From: a virus
Lineage: Duplodnaviria; Heunggongvirae; Uroviricota; Caudoviricetes
Reading direction: 5' to 3' (one strand)
IMG/VR virus record: IMGVR_UViG_2703718854_000005
Length of the DNA stretch: 21,181 nt
Under the pieces are notes generated by a model. That model made no database searches, was not told where the DNA came from, and worked only from the letters and a program-made list of their open reading frames with translations. Each line of letters starts with the position of its first letter. Position 1 is the stretch's first letter. The position numbers were made by a program, and so were the translations under genes. Of this stretch, positions 4,365 through 19,154 are shown one piece after another.

Positions 4365-4422
4365 AAAAAGGGCGGCAGAGCAGTCACGGAGTAAAACTGA
4401 TACCGCCAAACGTCACCAGAAA
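4365..4422 (-). ncRNA. dicF: DicF small RNA (ftsZ-targeting sRNA of Qin-type prophages) with its terminator hairpin and U-tail
   Basis: Minus-strand sequence TTTCTGGTGACGTTTGGCGGTATCAGTTTTACTCCGTGACTGCTCTGCCGCCC followed by TTTTT matches DicF as I remember it. Lies downstream of ydfA-ydfB-ydfC as in the dicB operon. Confidence 0.85.
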
Positions 4423-5462: not shown

Positions 5463-5870
5463 TTATCTTTTATTTGTCCGCTGACGGGCTTTTAGTAATT
5501 CTTCAAAGAGTTTATTGAAGTTTTTTACTCGAGCTCGCATTTCGGCGAGCTGGGTATCCTGTTCTGATTCTGGCAGTGCATTAAACAGCTCAAGGAGCTC
5601 TAGTTCTTTGGGGGATAAGGCAACTGGCTTCTCAACAGGTGGTGTTGGTTGCTTGTCTTCATCGCCAAATAGAATCCATGTTGGTGAGCATTGCAATACT
5701 TTGCTGAGGGCAAAAAGGTTCTTCCCTGTAGGTTCACTATCACCCCGTTCCCATTGTGATACAGACACATGGGAGATTTTCAGGGCTTTAGCAAGAGACC
5801 TTTGGGTGTGTTTGAGGTTTTTCCGACGATACCTGATGCGTTCGCCGATAGTTAAATTTTTTGTTTCCAT
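5463..5870 (-). CDS. dicA: DicA repressor (HTH, cI/C2-like)
   Basis: 135-aa ORF; sequence matches DicA as I remember it (METKNLTIGERIRYRRKNLKHTQRSLAKALKISHVSVSQWERGDSEPTGKNLF...). Divergent from dicC. Confidence 0.9.
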   Translation of the reverse strand: METKNLTIGERIRYRRKNLKHTQRSLAKALKISHVSVSQWERGDSEPTGKNLFALSKVLQCSPTWILFGDEDKQPTPPVEKPVALSPKELELLELFNALPESEQDTQLAEMRARVKNFNKLFEELLKARQRTNKR

Positions 5871-5953: not shown

Positions 5954-6298
5954 ATGCTTAAAACTGACGCTCTTTTGTATTTCGGTTCAAAAACAAAACT
6001 TGCACAAGCAGCAGGTATTCGTTTGGCTTCGCTTTATAGCTGGAAAGGGGATTTAGTTCCCGAAGGTCGCGCGATGCGTCTAGCAGGGAGGATTTGGCGT
6101 GTGCGCAGTGGATCTGGGGGCGGATCGTGGGTCTCTACGAACAGGCAGCCAGTGATGATGGCGAGATCATGCGACCAAAAGAGCCTAACTGGACTGCCTG
6201 GGCCAATGACGTGCGCACAATGCGGATGCTGGATGGCAGAAGCCACAGACAAATTTGCGAAATGTTTGGTCGGGTTCAGCGAGATCCATTCTGGGTAA
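5954..6298 (+). CDS. dicC: DicC-like Cro-type repressor; 3' extent uncertain
   Basis: The first ~43 aa (MLKTDALLYFGSKTKLAQAAGIRLASLYSWKGDLVPEGRAMRL) match DicC as I remember it. The rest of the frame is G/S/W/C-rich and looks non-protein-like, and overlaps an alternative-frame ORF. The end coordinate is just the first stop in frame. Confidence 0.5.
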   Translation: MLKTDALLYFGSKTKLAQAAGIRLASLYSWKGDLVPEGRAMRLAGRIWRVRSGSGGGSWVSTNRQPVMMARSCDQKSLTGLPGPMTCAQCGCWMAEATDKFAKCLVGFSEIHSG

Positions 6299-6435
6299 AA
6301 AACATCATGAGCCCGTCAAAGCTCCGCGAAAAATGGGACGAACTGGTCATCCGCCTGGGACGTTCACCTGTACAGCGTTGTGTTAATCATATTTCTGAAC
6401 CGGATACAGAAATTCCGCCTGGTTTCAGAGGATAA
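6169..6435 (+). CDS. Hypothetical protein with HTH-like segment
   Basis: Frame 1 is open from 6040 and has protein-like composition (MRPKEPNWTAWANDVRTMRMLDGRSHRQICEMFGRVQRDPFW...). Possible starts are TTG 6094, GTG 6127 and ATG 6169. Overlaps the extended dicC frame. Confidence 0.35.
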   Translation: MRPKEPNWTAWANDVRTMRMLDGRSHRQICEMFGRVQRDPFWVKNIMSPSKLREKWDELVIRLGRSPVQRCVNHISEPDTEIPPGFRG

Positions 6436-6475
6436 GTGTTGATTTCAGGTCATGAGGTAATTTTAAGGGGGACTT

Positions 6476-6898
6476 GTGGCAAAAGTTTTTACACAAGAAG
6501 AGCGGGAAAAAATTAAATGGCAGGTGGTGGAACTCGTGCGCCAGAGCGGCCGTGAGACGTTACGGCAACTGGAAGCTAAAACAGGTGCGACTAGATATCT
6601 GATGAGCGTTCTTGCCAGAGAGCTGGTAGCCAGTGGCGATGTATACAACTCCGGCTACGGGTTATTCCCCTCTGAACAGGCGCGTAAGGACTGGCAAAAC
6701 GCCCGCAAAAAACTCTCGAGGGCAAAGGTGAAGAAACCTGCTGTGGTTGATCCGGACCTTATCTGGTCATCACCTGACGGAGAAATACGTCGCTACGACA
6801 GTCGCCTAAACATAATCTGTCGCGAGTGCCGGAAGAGCGAAGTTATGCAGCGCATACTGGCTTTCTATCAGGGTAATTTTCAGGACGTGGCGCAGTGA
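6476..6898 (+). CDS. Hypothetical phage early-region protein (140 aa)
   Basis: GTG start preceded by an AAGGGGG RBS. Stop overlaps the start of the next ORF (GTGA), indicating translational coupling. Confidence 0.6.
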   Translation: MAKVFTQEEREKIKWQVVELVRQSGRETLRQLEAKTGATRYLMSVLARELVASGDVYNSGYGLFPSEQARKDWQNARKKLSRAKVKKPAVVDPDLIWSSPDGEIRRYDSRLNIICRECRKSEVMQRILAFYQGNFQDVAQ

Positions 6899-7251
6899 GT
6901 GCACCGGCAACCATTCTTGATATGTGCTGTGGCAGCCGCATGTTCTGGTTCGATAAGTCTGACGAACGGGCGATATTCAGCGATATCAGAAAAGAAGGAT
7001 ACACATTACGCAATGGGAGACGCTTGATTATCAGCCCTGACATTATCGCAGATTTTCGTGCATTATCATTTGCAGACGCATCTTTTTCGATGGTTGTATT
7101 AGACCCTCCGCATCTTGAGAGTGTTGGTGATAACGCCTGGATGGGAAAGAAATATGGACGGCTGAATAAAGATGCCTGGCGTGATGATTCGCGACAGAGA
7201 TTTAAAGAAGCCTTTCGGGTGTTGAGGCCGCACGGCGTTCTGATTTTTTAA
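6895..7251 (+). pseudogene. SAM-dependent DNA methyltransferase-like fragment (C-terminally truncated)
   Basis: 118-aa ORF with ILDMCCGSR (motif I-like), VVLDPPH (DPPY-type motif IV) and RVLRPHGVLIF (RVLKPGG-like). Ends right after this motif and both other frames stop within a few codons. Too short for a complete methyltransferase. Confidence 0.45.
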
Positions 7252-7673
7252 TGGAATGAAACGCAAATACCGGTAAGCCAGATTCTGGCACTGACAGACA
7301 GAAAACCTGTTATCTGTCAACGAACAGGGAAAAAACGATAAAACCCACTGGATTATTTTTATGAAAGAGGCATCCAGTGAGTAGATTCGTAAGGCTACAG
7401 ATACGTATATCTGAATAATTAAATTCAGTTCTGTAAATAAAATTTAATCCTTAACCGGATGGATTTCTGCACCCTCAGAACATCAGGAGGCCGCCCGAAA
7501 GGGCGGTAGTGAAATGCGAAAGTTCAAAATTATTATTGAAACGGGAATAGCTGGTGGAGATTTTGAGGATGTATTCGAAGTGGACGATGACGCAACACCT
7601 GAGGAAATTCATGACGGAGCATAAGAAATTTTCTTTAACTACTGCAATTACTCATACCACGAAATAAAAGACG

Positions 7674-7865
7674 ATGAGGAAGAACAAAGTGGCTGATTTT
7701 TGTTCAGCTAAATATAACATCAGTTTTGAAGAGCGGGATGAACTATTAATGGACTATGGTGAGTTACGCGGTGGAAGTGCTGCTGATGTCGAATCCTAGC
7801 GTGATGACTATGAAGCGGGAAAAACTCCGGTCGAAGCATATTGTGATGAGTGGGGCGATGAATGA
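7674..7865 (+). pseudogene. Small ORF interrupted by an in-frame TAG (7797..7799)
   Basis: ATG 7674 gives 41 codons, then TAG, then 21 further sense codons (RDDYEAGKTPVEAYCDEWGDE) ending in a TGA that overlaps the next ATG (ATGA at 7862). Confidence 0.3.
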
Positions 7866-8149
7866 GCGAGATTAATTATCAGGAAGGGCATGAAACGGCG
7901 GGGCAAGCAAAACCAGTGGCATGGCGATATCGCTACGTGAAAAAAGGCGTTACGGACTTTCAGGGGAAGTAGTGGTCTGGTGACTGGAAATATGTACCGA
8001 AAAAAGAGGATTGTAACGACAGGCCGAACTATCAAATTCAGGCCTTATTCACTGCCTCACCAGTCCCAGTTACATCAGAAGAACTGGTTAAAGCTGTGCA
8101 CTTTTATGAACAACTAAAACGCGAAAATCCACCAACATCCGGCAACTAG
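7862..8149 (+). pseudogene. Small ORF (95 codons) interrupted by an in-frame TAG (7970..7972)
   Basis: ATG 7862 gives 36 codons, TAG, then 59 stop-free codons in the same frame to TAG 8147..8149. An open run that long in AT-rich sequence is unlikely by chance. Confidence 0.4.
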
Positions 8150-8403
8150 ATTAATGGATTAACTATGTCGGTTAAACGACCAGCCAACTGAAAAAGCGGA
8201 AACCTGATTACAGGTTGCCAGATAAGGCAATGAGCTACCTGGCGCGGAACGGACTGATAAGTATGGGGAATGTTTTACGATGAACCTTTAGACTAAAGAG
8301 TTTGTAACGCTATGTAAGTGATTTTTTCTGGTTTAGATATTTATATGTCCGGCCAAATTGAGGTGTGTTTAAATGTAATTGCACATTGATTGTAGGAGGA
8401 ATA

Positions 8404-8583
8404 ATGAAAAACGCATTGCAGTTTTTGTTTGTTGCGTTCTGGTTGTTCGCATCATGTATGCCCATCATCTTCACAGCAAGGTATATGGAAAAAGTTGATG
8501 TTTTGATATTAATATTTGGATATATAAATGCCCTTTTTTTAGGGGTGTTCATGGCGGTCATGTGCATTGAATACTGGCGGTAA
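8404..8583 (+). CDS. Small hydrophobic membrane protein (59 aa, two predicted TM helices)
   Basis: ATG 8404 preceded by a strong AGGAGG RBS. Product MKNALQFLFVAFWLFASCMPIIFTARYMEKVDVLILIFGYINALFLGVFMAVMCIEYWR. Lies in AT-rich DNA. Confidence 0.5.
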   Translation: MKNALQFLFVAFWLFASCMPIIFTARYMEKVDVLILIFGYINALFLGVFMAVMCIEYWR

Positions 8584-8889
8584 ATACAGCGAACTCCATT
8601 GGTTTAGTTGGATATTTACTGTGCTGGACAAAAACGGTTTGCGGGGAAATCTTAGTTAAGTAGAATGACTGCGGGTGCTTGAGGCTATCTGCCTCGGGCA
8701 TGGACACCAACGGCAGATAGAGAAAAGCCCCAGTTAACATTACGCGTCCTGCAAGACGCTTAACATTAATCTGAGGCCAATTTCATGCTAGACACATGTA
8801 GGTTAGCCTCTTACGTGCCGAAAGGCACGGAGAAGCAGGCTATTGTTAACACCAAGCTGTAATGTCCCCTTTGAACCATTCTAAAATGT

Positions 8890-8917
8890 CCCCAGACAAT
8901 TCTCTGGGGGATTTTTC
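8890..8917 (+). promoter_or_regulatory. Hairpin sequestering the transposase RBS, with terminator-like U-run
   Basis: Stem CCCCAGA (8890..8896) pairs with TCTGGGG (8903..8909), loop caattc. The GGGGGA Shine-Dalgarno (8906..8911) is in the 3' arm. TTTTT at 8912..8916 sits immediately before ATG 8918. Confidence 0.5.
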
Positions 8918-10231
8918 ATGATCAAAGAGACTGTTACGATGAGTCATAAGGAACTCCACCGACTTCAGATTATTCAGGAACAAGCTGCGGCACGCATTGG
9001 CATTTCTATTCGGCAGGTTAAACGTCTGGTGCAACGGTATAGAAATGAAGGGCCTTCTGGTCTGGTTTCCCACCGACGTGGAAAGCGTCCTAATAATTCC
9101 TTTTCTACTGAATTCAGAGCAACAGTAATTTCACTCCTCAAAGGCCGTTACGCTGATTTTGGACCTACGTTTGCGTGCGAAAAATTGCGCGAGATACACG
9201 GTTTATCTTTATCCGTTGAAACTCTCAGAAAGTGGATGATAGAAGAGGGGTTATGGCGTGAACGCCGTCGTAAAATTGCCCGTATATATCAACGCCGCAT
9301 GCGACGACCATCTTACGGTGAACTGATCCAGATTGATGGCTCACCTCATGACTGGTTTGAAAATCGAGGCCCCAGATGTACACTGATCGTATTCATTGAT
9401 GATGCCACCAGTGCGTTGATGGCGTTGCGTTTTGTGCCTGCTGAAACAACCCGGGCTTACATGGAAACCCTCCGGGGTTACCTTAATGATCATGGCGTAC
9501 CGCTCGCTCTCTACTCTGATAGACACAGTATATTCAGGGTAAATAACCCAGAGCGGGAAGGTGAGCTGACCCAGTTCACTCGTGCGATAAAGACACTGGG
9601 CATCGAGCCAATCCATGCCAACAGCCCGCAGGCAAAAGGGCGGGTAGAGCGCGCCAATCAGACACTACAGGACAGGCTGGTCAAAGAAATGCGGCTTCAG
9701 AATATCAGTGATATTGAAACAGCAAATGCATGGTTGCCGACCTTTATTGAAGCCTATAACAACCGGTTCGCTACGTCGCCTCGTACTACTGATAATGCTC
9801 ATCTTGATGTGCACCATTCTGAAGAGGAACTGGGTTATATCTTCAGCCTACAGGCGAAGCGCGTTCTGTCTAAAAATCTCACTTTCCAGTACAAAAGCAG
9901 TGCGTTTCAGGTACGCAGTGAGGGCCGGGGATATCGACTTAGGCATTCGGTTGTTACTGTATGCGAGAACTTTGACGGTGAAATTAACGTTCTGTATGAC
10001 GGGAAAGCGCTGGGCTGGGAAAAGTATGTTGATGGCCCGGAGCCTATACCACTGGATGATGAAAAGAGTGTCCATGAACGAGTGGATAATGCCCGTATTG
10101 ATTTACGCTCAAAATACTATGTTAAACCTAAAGCTGACCATCCCTGGCTTACGCGCCGAACGCAAAGTCATCAGCAAGTTAAGCCCCCGAAGTTACCTAA
10201 AAAGAAGCCTGATCCCGATAAAAAAGATTGA
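8918..10231 (+). CDS. DDE transposase with retroviral-integrase-like (rve) core and N-terminal HTH; IS481/ISNCY-like, family tentative
   Basis: 437-aa ORF. N-terminal HTH-like region (IGISIRQVKRLVQRY), rve-type motifs (IQIDGSPHDW ... YSDRHSIF ... HANSPQAKGRVERANQTLQDRL), K-rich C-terminal tail. No istB-like partner downstream. Confidence 0.85.
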   Translation: MIKETVTMSHKELHRLQIIQEQAAARIGISIRQVKRLVQRYRNEGPSGLVSHRRGKRPNNSFSTEFRATVISLLKGRYADFGPTFACEKLREIHGLSLSVETLRKWMIEEGLWRERRRKIARIYQRRMRRPSYGELIQIDGSPHDWFENRGPRCTLIVFIDDATSALMALRFVPAETTRAYMETLRGYLNDHGVPLALYSDRHSIFRVNNPEREGELTQFTRAIKTLGIEPIHANSPQAKGRVERANQTLQDRLVKEMRLQNISDIETANAWLPTFIEAYNNRFATSPRTTDNAHLDVHHSEEELGYIFSLQAKRVLSKNLTFQYKSSAFQVRSEGRGYRLRHSVVTVCENFDGEINVLYDGKALGWEKYVDGPEPIPLDDEKSVHERVDNARIDLRSKYYVKPKADHPWLTRRTQSHQQVKPPKLPKKKPDPDKKD

Positions 10232-10667
10232 AACCAAGATCGATTCGGTTGAGTGCATATCCATTCATAGGGTAGATTCTTAAGTCGCGTTTCTGGTGTT
10301 CATTTTCGGGTGGTTTGTTACTTGTTTTACCGGGGATATGCCAGAAACGCGCTGAGTCAGTCTGGGCGGTGCGCGTAATGAGGCGTTATGGTAAATAGCC
10401 TATGCTAATGTCCGCTAAGAGCAAGAAGCGGAAGTTGGCAGTTTTGTGGACTGTCCCCACAAAAGTGACTACAGAAATAGTTGCAATTCATAATTGATCA
10501 TGGGTTGTCAGTTAAACTCGTGGCGATTTAAATAGACTAATTGGGAGTGCGTCCATTACTTATATCTTGTAATGTTAACTATCAGAAATGATACAAAGAT
10601 AATATGTCTTTAAAGAAAAGGCTGATGGCGAAAAGTGGCCCGATGAGGGCCACAATACGGCTGTCAC

Positions 10668-11000
10668 TTAGACGTAAATATCAATGGTGCCAGCGGTATT
10701 TGTATCGTCTTTTTTCTCTTCTTTTTTATCAGGCTGAACTGTCGCGTCTTCATTCTTTTTCTCTGCCTGCTGCCTTAACAACTGCTCCAGTTGAGCCCAG
10801 AGGCTTTCAATTTGCTTCTGTACCAATGCAGCCATTTCTTTTTTCTGCTGTGTCGTCATCCCCTCTTCCGATGAGATTTTCCCAAGCTTTTCAGTCAGCA
10901 CCTGAATTTGTCTTGTGATTTTGGCTATTTCTGATGTTCCTTCCGGGGCGGAGTTGTTTGAAATAACGGTTGAGGTATTTCCCTGAATTGTGACAGACAT
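10668..11000 (-). CDS. flxA: FlxA (flagellar-regulon protein of Qin-type prophages)
   Basis: 110-aa ORF matching FlxA as I remember it. GGAGA RBS and a near-consensus sigma-28 promoter upstream. Confidence 0.85.
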   Translation of the reverse strand: MSVTIQGNTSTVISNNSAPEGTSEIAKITRQIQVLTEKLGKISSEEGMTTQQKKEMAALVQKQIESLWAQLEQLLRQQAEKKNEDATVQPDKKEEKKDDTNTAGTIDIYV

Positions 11001-11023
11001 AGATTTCTCCTTTTAAAAAAGCA

Positions 11024-11050
11024 CTATCGGCATGCACAAAAAAATCTTTA
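11024..11050 (-). promoter_or_regulatory. Sigma-28 (FliA) promoter of flxA
   Basis: On the minus strand: TAAAGATT (-35; consensus TAAAGTTT), 11-nt spacer, GCCGATAG (-10; consensus GCCGATAA), about 25 nt upstream of the flxA ATG. Confidence 0.7.
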
Positions 11051-11202
11051 ATCGTATTTCTTGTGTCATTAATTGTTTGATGTTCAGATTGTTTTCCTCG
11101 CGGGCTGGCGCGCCTCAGAAAGTAAAGCTTGTTGACAGGGGTAAACGTTCGGCAATAATTTTCTGCCGCATGCGGGTGTTGCATAAAACGTGTTACGTTC
11201 CT

Positions 11203-11508
11203 TTATCGACAGGTCAGGTCACCGCTCACCCGCCGACGAGAAAGCAACACTGACATGCTAAAGCAAAAAATAGATGAATAAGTTGAGTTGTGCATATGTA
11301 GCCTGACCGTCACAAAGTATATGGTGTCTGTACCAGTAAGATGATGGCCGGACTCTTTAAAAACGAGCTGACCTGCACAATACAGGATGGACTTAGCAAT
11401 GGCTGCTCCTGGCACAAAGCGGACAGTGATCACCGTTCTTACGACTACTTTCTGACTTCCTTCGTGACTTGCCCTAAGCATGTTGTAGTGCGATACTTGT
11501 AATGACAT
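11203..11508 (-). CDS. Dubious 101-aa ORF in the position where K-12 annotates ydfV
   Basis: Length and position between relB and flxA fit ydfV as I remember it. Composition is not convincingly protein-like and it is antisense to the relBE promoter region. Confidence 0.2.
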   Translation of the reverse strand: MSLQVSHYNMLRASHEGSQKVVVRTVITVRFVPGAAIAKSILYCAGQLVFKESGHHLTGTDTIYFVTVRLHMHNSTYSSIFCFSMSVLLSRRRVSGDLTCR

Positions 11509-11532
11509 TTGTAATTACAAGAGGTGTAAGAC
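11480..11532 (+). promoter_or_regulatory. relBE promoter/operator (relO-like)
   Basis: Palindromic TTGTAATGACATTTGTAATTACAAG element containing the perfect palindrome TGTAATTACA, immediately upstream of the relB RBS (GAGGTG). Confidence 0.55.
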
Positions 11533-11772
11533 ATGGGTAGCATTAACCTGCGTATTGACGATGAACTTAAAGCGCGTTCTTACGCCGCGCTTGAAAAAAT
11601 GGGTGTAACTCCTTCTGAAGCGCTTCGTCTCATGCTCGAGTATATCGCTGACAATGAACGCTTGCCGTTCAAACAGACACTCCTGAGTGATGAAGATGCT
11701 GAACTTGTGGAGATAGTGAAAGAACGGCTTCGTAATCCTAAGCCAGTACGTGTGACGCTGGATGAACTCTGA
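11533..11772 (+). CDS. relB: RelB antitoxin
   Basis: 79-aa ORF matching RelB as I remember it (MGSINLRIDDELKARSY...RVTLDEL). Stop overlaps the relE start. Confidence 0.9.
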   Translation: MGSINLRIDDELKARSYAALEKMGVTPSEALRLMLEYIADNERLPFKQTLLSDEDAELVEIVKERLRNPKPVRVTLDEL

Positions 11773-12059
11773 TGGCGTATTTTCTGGATTTTGACGAGCG
11801 GGCACTAAAGGAATGGCGAAAGCTGGGCTCGACGGTACGTGAACAGTTGAAAAAGAAGCTGGTTGAAGTACTTGAGTCACCCCGGATTGAAGCAAACAAG
11901 CTCCGTGGTATGCCTGATTGTTACAAGATTAAGCTCCGGTCTTCAGGCTATCGCCTTGTATACCAGGTTATAGACGAGAAAGTTGTCGTTTTCGTGATTT
12001 CTGTTGGGAAAAGAGAACGCTCGGAAGTATATAGCGAGGCGGTCAAACGCATTCTCTGA
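11772..12059 (+). CDS. relE: RelE mRNA interferase toxin
   Basis: 95-aa ORF matching RelE as I remember it (MAYFLDFDERALKEWRKLG...). Overlapping start/stop with relB. Confidence 0.9.
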   Translation: MAYFLDFDERALKEWRKLGSTVREQLKKKLVEVLESPRIEANKLRGMPDCYKIKLRSSGYRLVYQVIDEKVVVFVISVGKRERSEVYSEAVKRIL

Positions 12060-12130
12060 ACCAAAGCATGACATCTCTGTTTCGCACCGAAGGTGACACT
12101 TCTGCTTTGCGTTGACAGGAGAAGCAGGCT

Positions 12131-12286
12131 ATGAAGCAGCAAAAGGCGATGTTAATCGCCCTGATCGTCATCTGTTTAACCGTCATAGTGACGGCACTGG
12201 TAACGAGGAAAGACCTCTGCGAGGTACGAATCCGAACCGGCCAGACGGAGGTCGCTGTCTTCACAGCTTACGAACCTGAGGAGTAA
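12131..12286 (+). CDS. hokD: HokD (RelF) Hok-family membrane toxin
   Basis: Not in the ORF track (51 aa). Manual translation gives MKQQKAMLIALIVICLTVIVTALVTRKDLCEVRIRTGQTEVAVFTAYEPEE. Lies directly downstream of relE. Confidence 0.85.
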   Translation: MKQQKAMLIALIVICLTVIVTALVTRKDLCEVRIRTGQTEVAVFTAYEPEE

Positions 12287-15550: not shown

Positions 15551-15850
15551 AAAAATTCCTTAATACTGATAACTTGGCGCACTATACACACGTTCCTGAA
15601 GAAAGCTATAGTTTTTTGATGGGGTTGAAGATGGCTGGATGTCTAAAATAAACATTGCTTCATATGTTCAACTATGCGTTAATGATTGCGTCGGTTTGAA
15701 GAACAGACGATATACGAAGTAGTTTACTAAAGCAGTTCTCATTTCAGGTGTTATTCACTTATTCCTTCTTTGAGTCTCTCCAATTAAGTACGAAGTCGTT
15801 TCTGTTATGCAAACCATTTATGCCGAAAGGCTCAAGTTAAGGAATGTAGA

Positions 15851-16066
15851 ATGTCAAATAAAATGACTGGTTTAGTAAAATGGTTTAACGCTGATAAAGG
15901 TTTCGGCTTTATTTCTCCTGTTGATGGTAGTAAAGATGTGTTTGTGCATTTTTCTGCGATTCAGAATGATAATTATCGAACCTTATTTGAAGGTCAAAAG
16001 GTTACCTTCTCTATAGAGAGTGGTGCTAAAGGTCCTGCAGCAGCAAATGTCATCATTACTGATTAA
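15851..16066 (+). CDS. cspB: Cold-shock protein CspB
   Basis: 71-aa ORF with the CspA-family RNP motifs (KGFGFI, VFVHF). Matches CspB as I remember it; preceded by a long AT-rich 5' leader. Confidence 0.85.
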
Positions 16067-16177
16067 AATTCATCGCTCGTCTGTATACGATAACGAAGAA
16101 GGCTGATGCCTGAGTAGAGATACGGACAGAGTAGTGAATATTGGATCTCTTTAATAAAAAGTAAGGAGGTCCAATAC

Positions 16178-18375: not shown

Positions 18376-18737
18376 GGTAATATTAAATCGGAACATTTAC
18401 ATCGCGGAATGTAAAATTTAAATAAAAAGGACTCTTCCATGAGCCAAAATTCCTGAAATCTTAAGGGTAAGATAAAAGGTCTTAATCAGAATGACACGTT
18501 TTATTAATAAATAAAGCTATTCTTTCATTGCTGTGTTTTTCTTTACAAAAGTAATCCTTGCTATGGGTGGTTAATCATGCGTTAATGGTGTTCTGGTTTG
18601 TTACAAATTTATCTGAAGCAGTCATTGTTATAATTTTATTATTTGTACCTCTTGAGATTTCCTTGTTGGTTTTTCTCTCTGATATTTTTTTTCGGACCAT
18701 TCTGCCCAAGGGCTAATTTCTTCAAAAGGTAATAATT

Positions 18738-18950
18738 ATGTCTAACAAAATGACTGGTTTAGTGAAATGGTTTAACCCTGAAAAAGGTTTTGGTTTCATC
18801 ACGCCGAAAGATGGCAGCAAAGATGTGTTTGTCCATTTCTCAGCAATTCAGAGCAACGATTTCAAAACATTAACTGAGAATCAGGAAGTTGAATTTGGTA
18901 TTGAGAACGGACCTAAAGGTCCTGCCGCTGTTCATGTAGTGGCGCTTTGA
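18738..18950 (+). CDS. cspI: Cold-shock protein CspI
   Basis: 70-aa [73 protein letters not shown] matches CspI as I remember it. Confidence 0.85.
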
Positions 18951-19154
18951 GGTAGACAATATTACAAACCATATTCACTTTAGATGCCCGTGTTGTCATG
19001 GTTCCCAGTATAGAACATCATCTTTTGATGTTTCTGACATGAATCCTTTCGGGGCAAAATGTATCTTTTGTAAATCAATGATGATTACATTTGATAATAT
19101 TTCACAATACTTAAATGCCAGCCGTCTGTCGTTGGATTTAAAAAAGTGAAAATG

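Follow-up and report, generated by a model that had tools for sequence, protein, structure and literature searches.

The stretch of DNA analyzed here, IMG/VR record IMGVR_UViG_2703718854_000005 (21,181 nucleotides; all of it is called the window), is by its gene and RNA content a Qin (Kim)-type, DicA/DicF lambdoid prophage of Escherichia coli. A preliminary description, made from the letters alone, had singled out an AT-rich segment at 7252-8900 as a horizontally acquired cargo island. We consider it highly probable that 7252-8843 is instead the eroded remainder of a Qin/Rac-type accessory block between replication-region genes (DUF977/Ren-like) and a hok/sok toxin-antitoxin locus, and not an insertion. 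This confidence applies to the whole explanation as one claim, in which the eroded block ends in a hok/sok locus that has been split by a relBE-carrying transposon at 8844-12117. The decay is ordinary. The interest of the segment is in one small membrane-protein gene and, above all, in its junction with the relBE element, which we propose homes to hok.

The right edge of the segment carries the 5′ half of a hok messenger RNA (mRNA) at 8673-8843 on the plus strand, with the 5′ translational-activator sequence, the Sok target, the mok start, and the hok Shine-Dalgarno sequence. This leader, overlooked in the preliminary description, matches Rfam RF01794 over 8673-8844 in the sense of the hok mRNA, with 104.1 bits against a gathering threshold of 59 and across the full model (1-157). 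A permissive Rfam scan and a transfer RNA (tRNA) scan found nothing else in the segment. The Rfam match stops where the hok ATG would stand; in the intact phage vB_EcoS-640R1 (640R1; locus L003) the Hok frame comes directly next. In the window no Hok toxin frame follows the leader directly; it is found 3,274 bp further on as hokD (relF; 12131-12286, plus strand), followed by 3′ fold-back sequence and a terminator to ∼12375. The hokD region is 100% identical to that of K-12 and matches NCBIfam Hok-family models below their curated cut-offs. When 8844-12132 was removed in silico, the locus became collinear with intact hok at 95.8% identity over 495 bp. Since this joint is collinear and gapless, hokD is taken as the toxin half and 8673-8843 as the regulatory half of one locus, which, judged by its sequence, is a split and inactivated hok/sok member, cut between the Shine-Dalgarno sequence and the hok ATG. 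The true right edge of the segment is thus at 8843/8844, the left end of the transposon, rather than at 8900.

The remaining parts of a hok/sok locus could be placed around this cut. A putative hok promoter (TTGCGG, 16 nt, TAGAAT; 8639-8666, plus strand) was read from the sequence 7 nt upstream of the start of the Rfam match, and the same sequence is present in the intact L003 locus. The mok homologue in L003 is a 70-codon open reading frame (ORF) that overlaps hok and is annotated "host killer protein"; in the window, 25 codons of the mok frame are left (8785-8862, plus strand), with no overlap with hok and a stop inside the left inverted repeat of the transposon. A putative sok antisense gene occupies 8716-8828 on the minus strand, with a −35 element GTGCCT (8828-8823), a 17-nt spacer, a −10 element TAACCT (8805-8800), and an RNA of ∼75 nt with a hairpin and U-run. 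The −35 element is GTGCCT in the window lineage and TTGCCT in 640R1 and many other copies; this promoter region is located just inside the left copy of the target duplication described below. The fold of the putative Sok RNA has a z-score of −3, at which the structure is not decisive.

On the far side of the transposon, hokD retains only the duplicated ribosome-binding site and start codon. It lies 58 nt behind relE with no terminator in between, which agrees with the documented co-transcription of relBEF (PMC3598666). Transcripts that run on from hok are probably stopped by a terminator-like hairpin at 8889-8910, immediately before the transposase start codon. The insertion would part hok from its promoter, its mok coupling, and its Sok target, and hokD would now be transcribed from the relBE promoter. 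The orphan left half might still yield a Sok-like RNA, from a promoter weakened by the −35 change, and a truncated hok leader with no toxin to control.

The inserted element is 3,274 bp long (8844-12117) and comprises an ISEsa1-type transposase gene, flxA, ydfV, and relBE. A repeat search returned two exact copies, 3,289 bp apart, of the 15-bp target duplication GGAGAAGCAGGCTAT, one at 8829-8843 and one at 12118-12132, directly before hokD. Inside these copies the element starts TGTTAACACC and finishes GCGTTGACA, with a left terminal inverted repeat TGTTAACACCAAGCTGTAATGTCCCC at 8844-8869 and a right one GGTGACACTTCTGCTTTGCGTTGACA at 12092-12117, both given on the plus strand. The 26-mer ends match as inverted repeats at 19 of 26 positions (P ∼4e-7) and have TGT...ACA termini. 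The left repeat has a second, subterminal copy at 8875-8893; its counterpart on the right was seen by eye only. The transposase (437 aa; 8918-10231, plus strand) matches NCBIfam NF033594 (ISNCY/IS1202) with 456 bits against a cut-off of 250, contains Pfam helix-turn-helix and rve_3 domains, and is named "IS1202-like element ISEsa1 family transposase" by RefSeq. The features of the IS1202 family of insertion sequences (IS) are all present: the transposase, imperfect 24-26 bp TGT...ACA repeats, a subterminal site, and a characteristic duplication. All complete units at hok sites have a duplication of 13-16 bp (15-16 in most), which fits the published classes of "15-17 bp" and ">15 bp".

Relative to a 446-aa form of the transposase, the window copy has a 27-bp in-frame deletion near 8974-8980, between short direct repeats, which takes nine residues (ESINRHITQ) from the N-terminal helix-turn-helix region. 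Versions of 3,274 bp and 3,301 bp are both found at the same Qin site in other genomes; E. coli ATCC 8739 has a different indel there, of ∼25 bp, and its transposase gene is annotated by RefSeq as an incomplete pseudogene.

Comparison of units from different loci, 2.3-7.7 kb in length, revealed a shared left module of ∼1,590 bp, a shared right module of ∼715 bp, and differing genes between them. In the window copy the variable cargo spans 10437-11404 and holds flxA (10668-11000, minus strand) and part of ydfV. The conserved right module (11405-12091, plus strand) contains the relBE promoter, relB (11533-11772), and relE (11772-12059), and is 93-99.7% identical across all units irrespective of cargo. 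The annotated ydfV ORF (11203-11508, minus strand) straddles the boundary between cargo and relBE module at ∼11405 and is for this reason doubtful as a gene. Units of 2,261 and 2,575 bp, considered as a minimal transposase-plus-relBE unit, proved to be deletion derivatives.

This architecture differs from that given for ISEsa1 in a published table (PMC10132070), where it is an IS of 1,609 bp for which no duplication was detected; nor did that survey identify a target for the subgroup. An ISEsa1 of 1.6 kb with inverted repeats of its own was not found: the left module ends at ∼1,590 bp, where the cargo begins, and neither a repeat search of the window nor the 105 loci with enough sequence gave an internal right end at ∼1.6 kb. 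At these loci a second copy of the flank was seen only beyond the right inverted repeat and never near 1.6 kb.

The full 3,274/3,301-bp unit also occurs at 99.8% identity on IncF/IncI plasmids of Enterobacter, Salmonella, and E. coli, where the matches stop exactly at its two ends. A scan for the exact 26-nt left end in species-representative genomes, metagenomes, and viral contigs, plus the plasmid loci, yielded 164 flanks in 39 clusters, with the same left end adjoining different flanks. Two-thirds of the clusters (26 of 39) are at a hok-type site, 21 with a hok leader and five ending in a hok-type Shine-Dalgarno sequence. Of these five, two are next to another IS, L095 is a tandem second insertion, L020 is an inverted copy, and one is a deletion derivative. 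Every contig that extends to the right end shows the same right repeat there, and directly after it 13-16 bp of the left flank of that particular locus are repeated (for instance GGAGAAGAAGGCCAT, TGGAGGGGCTATGAT, and GATGTTAGCCATG). Because these duplications differ between loci and yet match within each, recombination cannot produce them, and together with the distinct leaders they point to at least 12 independent insertions in different hok loci. Of 36 distinct flanks, 29 have the junction 40-41 nt away from a conserved TAGCC motif. At loci of the L028 type, what follows GGAG looks like the terminus of a different IS, yet the spacing between insertion and leader is unchanged. Taken with the fixed distance to TAGCC, this suggests that the transposase would recognize the conserved upstream hok leader/sok promoter DNA and insert 40-41 nt from the motif.

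Several individual loci show further arrangements. At L095 a right repeat, 15 bp, and a left repeat follow one another, as in a tandem second insertion into the regenerated target. L170 pairs a pnd-type left flank with a hokD right flank, the product of recombination between two copies, and at L020 the hok site is the same but the element is inverted. At L055, L075 (upstream of the left inverted repeat), L028, and L091 a different, second IS adjoins the hok GGAG site; it encodes a 376-aa rve-type transposase and has ends resembling TGTGTAAGTTCACACAGATATTGCAAT. At some loci the relBE transposon lies 12 bp inside the apparent end of this second IS. More than one kind of element may thus be drawn to the hok start.

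From these comparisons we lean slightly toward a joint reading of transposon and landing pad: ISEsa1 would be the left arm of 2.3-7.7 kb transposons with a constant relBE right arm, which home at a fixed distance to the interval between the ribosome-binding site and start of hok on plasmids and prophages, replace a type I by a type II module, put Hok under relBE control, and gave rise to relBEF of K-12, with the hok start as a general landing pad. Our literature searches, which did not reach ISfinder or TnCentral entries, found no description of the relBE transposon, of a target for ISEsa1, of hok targeting, or of the rearrangement at hokD, and a parallel preprint on the IS1202 family does not mention ISEsa1, hok, or relE. 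The hok-homing relBE transposon seems to be undescribed.

Two intact phages, 640R1 and vB_EcoM-606R7 (606R7; L004), served as rulers for the DNA upstream of the hok leader: what they carry from the DUF977/Ren-like gene to hok is collinear with the segment. The order of the methyltransferase, DUF7167, PHROG-519, and PHROG-660 genes is the same as in the intact phages, and each of the four has a premature stop in the window. The DNA methyltransferase pseudogene (6895-7384, plus strand) is interrupted by an in-frame TAA (7249-7251) and carries a single additional A in the A-run at 7330-7335. Read across both lesions, it gives 162 residues, of which residues 5-161 match PHROG 954 "DNA methyltransferase" (E 7e-80), and by tblastn it is collinear with intact homologues of Stx2c and Klebsiella phages. 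Position 7251, given in the preliminary description as the end of the methyltransferase fragment, is this in-frame TAA, and the pseudogene continues to 7384; RefSeq calls its first 118 codons only. A T-run frameshift at 7246-7251 was ruled out as the lesion, since tblastn shows the TAA to be in frame and the sole frameshift to be the A at 7330-7335. Phage 640R1 has another gene in place of the methyltransferase module.

The three genes that follow are broken in a similar way. The DUF7167 pseudogene (7514-7696, plus strand; Pfam PF23768, 51.6 bits; PHROG 1997) carries an AAA to TAA change at 7622-7624 and gives a full-length match only across this stop; it is an open 60-codon gene in L003 and L004, and RefSeq tags the identical copy of the window version "internal stop". 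The ratio of nonsynonymous to synonymous differences per site (pN/pS) for this gene is 0.07 between the two intact phage copies and 0.44 between the window copy and 606R7, and although the counts are small, the direction is that of relaxed constraint in the window copy. A decayed PHROG-519-like gene (7689-7865, plus strand; PHROG 519, E 2e-13) has its start changed from ATG to GTG at 7689 and a TGG to TAG change at 7797-7799; in alignment it is intact in phage 640R1, at 58 codons. A decayed PHROG-660-like gene (7862-8149, plus strand; PHROG 660, E 9e-29), intact at 119 codons in 606R7, has a TAG at 7970-7972 and a replaced 3′ end, and is tagged "frameshifted; internal stop" by RefSeq in the same identical copy. 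By a rough estimate, the number of stop codons is about that expected from unconstrained drift at 7-8% divergence. Four of the five protein genes of the segment thus belong to existing phage families, three of them families without assigned function, and all four are broken. Beyond them, a 57-bp stretch (8140-8196) is missing from phage 640R1 and is not conserved in relatives; it contributes half of a minus-strand terminator-like hairpin (8216-8201, then a T-run). In many strains the same 2-kb segment is broken by further IS (IS1, IS3, IS4, IS5, IS66, IS150, and IS903), which fits neutral DNA accumulating insertions. We infer that the segment as a whole no longer serves the prophage, possibly except for its membrane protein.

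What the preliminary description had seen in the segment was borne out in part. Its longest ORFs are 72-85 aa, in line with the claim of only broken or very small frames, and RefSeq marks two pseudogenes with internal stops at matching places in an identical copy. Partial decay is evident from nonsense codons in four successive genes that are open frames in intact relatives, and whole-segment deletions are common elsewhere. The one predicted membrane protein was confirmed as well (ORF 8404-8583, below). The claim of AT-richness stood in part. The G+C content (GC) of 7252-8900 is 0.420, compared with 0.446 for the whole window, 0.494 for the left flank (5954-7251), and 0.464 for the right-hand element, so the composition is not uniform and the dip relative to the immediate flanks is real. 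It is nonetheless small and unremarkable, being within the ordinary range of the window: 20% of all 1,649-bp windows in the sequence have a GC as low or lower, and values of 0.31-0.35 are reached in the late region.

The fifth gene of the segment is intact. It lies at 8404-8583 on the plus strand, encodes a two-helix membrane protein of 59 codons, and has an AGGAGG ribosome-binding site upstream. Searches of Pfam, PHROGs, and NCBIfam returned no family for it. Near-identical copies are confined to E. coli and Shigella; a word-index protein search returned near-identical or shortened copies only, and 60 DNA copies show two substitutions and hence no selection signal. An exhaustive HMMER search, however, recovered a 41%-identical homologue of exactly 59 residues in a prophage contig with cytolethal-distending-toxin (cdt) genes. 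The two genes align without indels while their flanks need gaps, with pN 0.34, pS 0.71, and 25/17/31 differences by codon position. The AlphaFold2 model of the protein is a two-helix hairpin (helices 3-24 and 31-58) with a mean predicted local-distance difference test score (pLDDT) of 82.6. An antisense ORF (8310-8567, minus strand) is annotated in two phage records, once as "hornerin", and RefSeq annotates neither strand; this antisense frame is closed in the diverged homologue. Together, the absence of indels, pN below pS, the closed antisense frame, and the hairpin model indicate that 8404-8583 is a genuine small membrane-protein gene, conserved and missed by RefSeq. Its product might be a prophage accessory (moron-type) protein at the inner membrane, although this is a guess. 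The homologue is at 4001-4180 of contig L174, ∼1.4 kb downstream of cdtA-cdtB-cdtC-like ORFs (326-2563; a call that is our reading of the three ORFs alone) and an integrase fragment. Two or more unrelated prophage backgrounds thus carry this gene among their accessory genes.

The DNA around the junction varies among strains. The window sequence at 6850-8920 is 100% identical to that of E. coli ATCC 8739, many other strains, and the ECOR13 prophage PhiR42_1, and at least 80% of it is present in 371 complete genomes. At 16 loci, in turn, the DUF977 gene (∼6836) is joined to the hok leader (∼8820) at a GTGCCG(G/A)AAGG microhomology, with loss of the whole segment. K-12 has a different deletion, in which all DNA between ydfX and a point within the transposase gene is gone. 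The K-12 "ydfW" (49 aa) is the C-terminal transposase fragment left by this deletion and corresponds to 10082-10231 of the window; YdfW is still annotated as a separate protein in strains with the full transposase gene. The deletion also cost K-12 the 5′ half of its hokD locus, which accounts for the earlier report that a rearrangement had inactivated hokD in that strain. In the passage of Pedersen and Gerdes 1999 quoted in PMC7232551, K-12 hok loci are described as inactivated by IS elements, point mutation, or rearrangement.

Some observations weigh against our explanation. One-third of the flank clusters (13 of 39) are not hok sites, most of them without a visible right end, and therefore the targeting is only a preference or these copies have been rearranged. 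Redundant metagenome contigs were included, so that the cluster counts overstate independent events. The transposase of the window copy may be inactive given its nine-residue deletion. The hok and sok promoters were assigned by eye and by analogy: a promoter/terminator consensus scan of 7200-8950, which found fewer promoter-like sites than in shuffles, missed both. Lastly, the GC dip is weak, so that composition is uninformative either way.

We weighed the collinear, eroded block against the view that the segment is an AT-rich cargo island, horizontally acquired into the early region and now decaying, possibly with an unknown system aboard. Its GC below that of the immediate flanks, the mosaic left part, in which 640R1 has exchanged the methyltransferase module, and one gene without a family in any library searched would all suit such an island. 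However, intact relatives have a collinear block in the same place, the dip is within the window's ordinary range, four of five protein genes are broken members of existing phage families, and a repeat search and a tRNA scan revealed no direct repeats, att-like sites, tRNA, or integrase bounding the segment. Where the block is absent, the absence traces to the microhomology deletion and not to a clean empty site. A comparative alignment, suggested as a way to find insertion boundaries, accordingly showed related phages with the same DUF977-hok block, the inserted DNA being the right-hand neighbor at 8844-12117. We regard the island as unlikely; "cargo" holds only in the general sense of mosaic accessory (moron-type) lambdoid DNA, and the expectation that this would be the likeliest place for something undescribed holds for the right edge and the one small gene, not for the rest. 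That the small ORFs work as short peptides or by readthrough in an active locus is scarcely credible. The 100% conservation of the segment in several hundred genomes might suggest it, but the copies are identical because a single prophage lineage has descended recently from a common ancestor, the intact homologues are under purifying selection over their full length while the window copy is relaxed (pN/pS as above), and many strains have deleted the whole segment.

For the junction, an alternative to targeting is that one ancestral insertion was spread among hok sites by recombination, or that selection favored hok inactivation, with no target specificity involved. The hok loci are alike enough to recombine, the mismatched flanks of L170 are what recombination between two copies would give, toxin inactivation is harmless, and other IS elements are reportedly found near hok genes in K-12, a point ascribed to Pedersen and Gerdes (1999). 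Against this, the 13-16 bp duplications vary between loci and match within each, selection alone would permit insertions anywhere in mok/hok whereas the junction stays within ∼2 nt of a fixed position, L028-type insertions keep their distance from the leader despite the other IS end after GGAG, and L095 shows a second insertion into a regenerated target. We consider this alternative, too, improbable. Far less probable still is an illegitimate rearrangement, the "major genetic rearrangement" of earlier accounts, with the IS and relBE as unrelated neighbors. ISfinder defines ISEsa1 as a 1.6-kb IS (table in PMC10132070), and K-12 by itself shows a transposase fragment only, which would be consistent with it; yet the inverted repeats are exactly at both ends of the 3,274-bp unit with the duplication outside them, the complete unit is on unrelated plasmids with other duplications, and no duplication was ever seen around the 1.6-kb part. 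Hence, insertion of a relBE transposon into hok remains our preferred account of the split.

The two parts of this arrangement resemble known systems to different degrees. Like hok/sok (parB of plasmid R1) and chromosomal hokD/relF, the window locus has a leader that matches the full Rfam model and a toxin gene that is the K-12 hokD; unlike K-12, which lost the 5′ half, the window holds both halves, and the cause of the split is visible. Tn7 inserts at attTn7, at a fixed distance from a recognized conserved sequence and in a preferred orientation, with a 5-bp duplication. The window element shares this fixed spacing and preferred orientation, but it has no TnsC/TnsD-like genes, its duplication is 13-16 bp, and its target is on mobile elements (plasmids and prophages). 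Some Tn3-family transposons carry toxin-antitoxin passenger genes, and here also a type II pair is constant next to one end of the element. The window element differs from them in transposase family and mechanism and in that a resident type I locus is destroyed and its toxin placed downstream of relBE. Its nearest relatives are in the IS1202 family (the ISAjo2/ISAba32 group and the ISEsa1 subgroup), with the same transposase family, TGT...ACA ends, 24-26 bp repeats, and a subterminal site; for this family, passenger genes and oriented, site-specific insertion beside a conserved sequence in some members, as well as a likeness of the transposase to TnsB, have been reported (PMC10132070). The ISAjo2/ISAba32 group targets the dif/pdif XerC/D site and makes a 5-bp duplication, whereas the window element targets the hok translation-initiation region, makes a 13-16 bp duplication, and forms units of 2.3-7.7 kb with relBE fixed at the right end. 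The segment itself resembles lambdoid accessory ("moron", nin/ea-type) regions in being a mosaic block of small genes without assigned function between replication genes and Q that differs from one relative to another, and it is unlike a typical one in that four of its five protein genes are pseudogenes.

Elsewhere in the window, the assignment to Qin is reflected in dicA (5463-5870, minus strand; from the ORF and its annotation), the DicF RNA (4370-4421, minus strand; Rfam, 76.7 bits), and dicC, flxA, relB, relE, hokD, rem, and ydfU. Compared with ATCC 8739 and PhiR42_1, the window lacks 1,182 bp at 6081-6099, joined at a 19-bp overlap. This loss comprises the 3′ end of dicC, a ydaT-like gene, and the 5′ part of an O-like gene, and it creates a 114-codon dicC fusion ORF (5954-6298). 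Two cspA-type thermoregulator leaders (15690-16082 and 18592-18977; Rfam, 158.8 and 112.8 bits) precede prophage cold-shock genes, in the stretch where the window is richest in AT (GC 0.31-0.40).

The decayed segment has little importance of its own beyond its record of cryptic-prophage erosion and one added small membrane-protein gene, which annotation pipelines overlook or place on the opposite strand. The junction is more important. It reveals the fate of the lost regulatory half of hokD and would reveal the origin of the relBEF arrangement, in which relBE, a textbook type II toxin-antitoxin system, would be a transposon passenger in K-12. The ISEsa1 subgroup of the IS1202 family would gain a target and a target duplication, neither of which was found in the 2023 survey (PMC10132070). 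A site-specific transposon that uses the toxin-antitoxin loci of plasmids and phages as landing sites would bear on the competition between addiction modules and on the evolution of plasmid leading regions.

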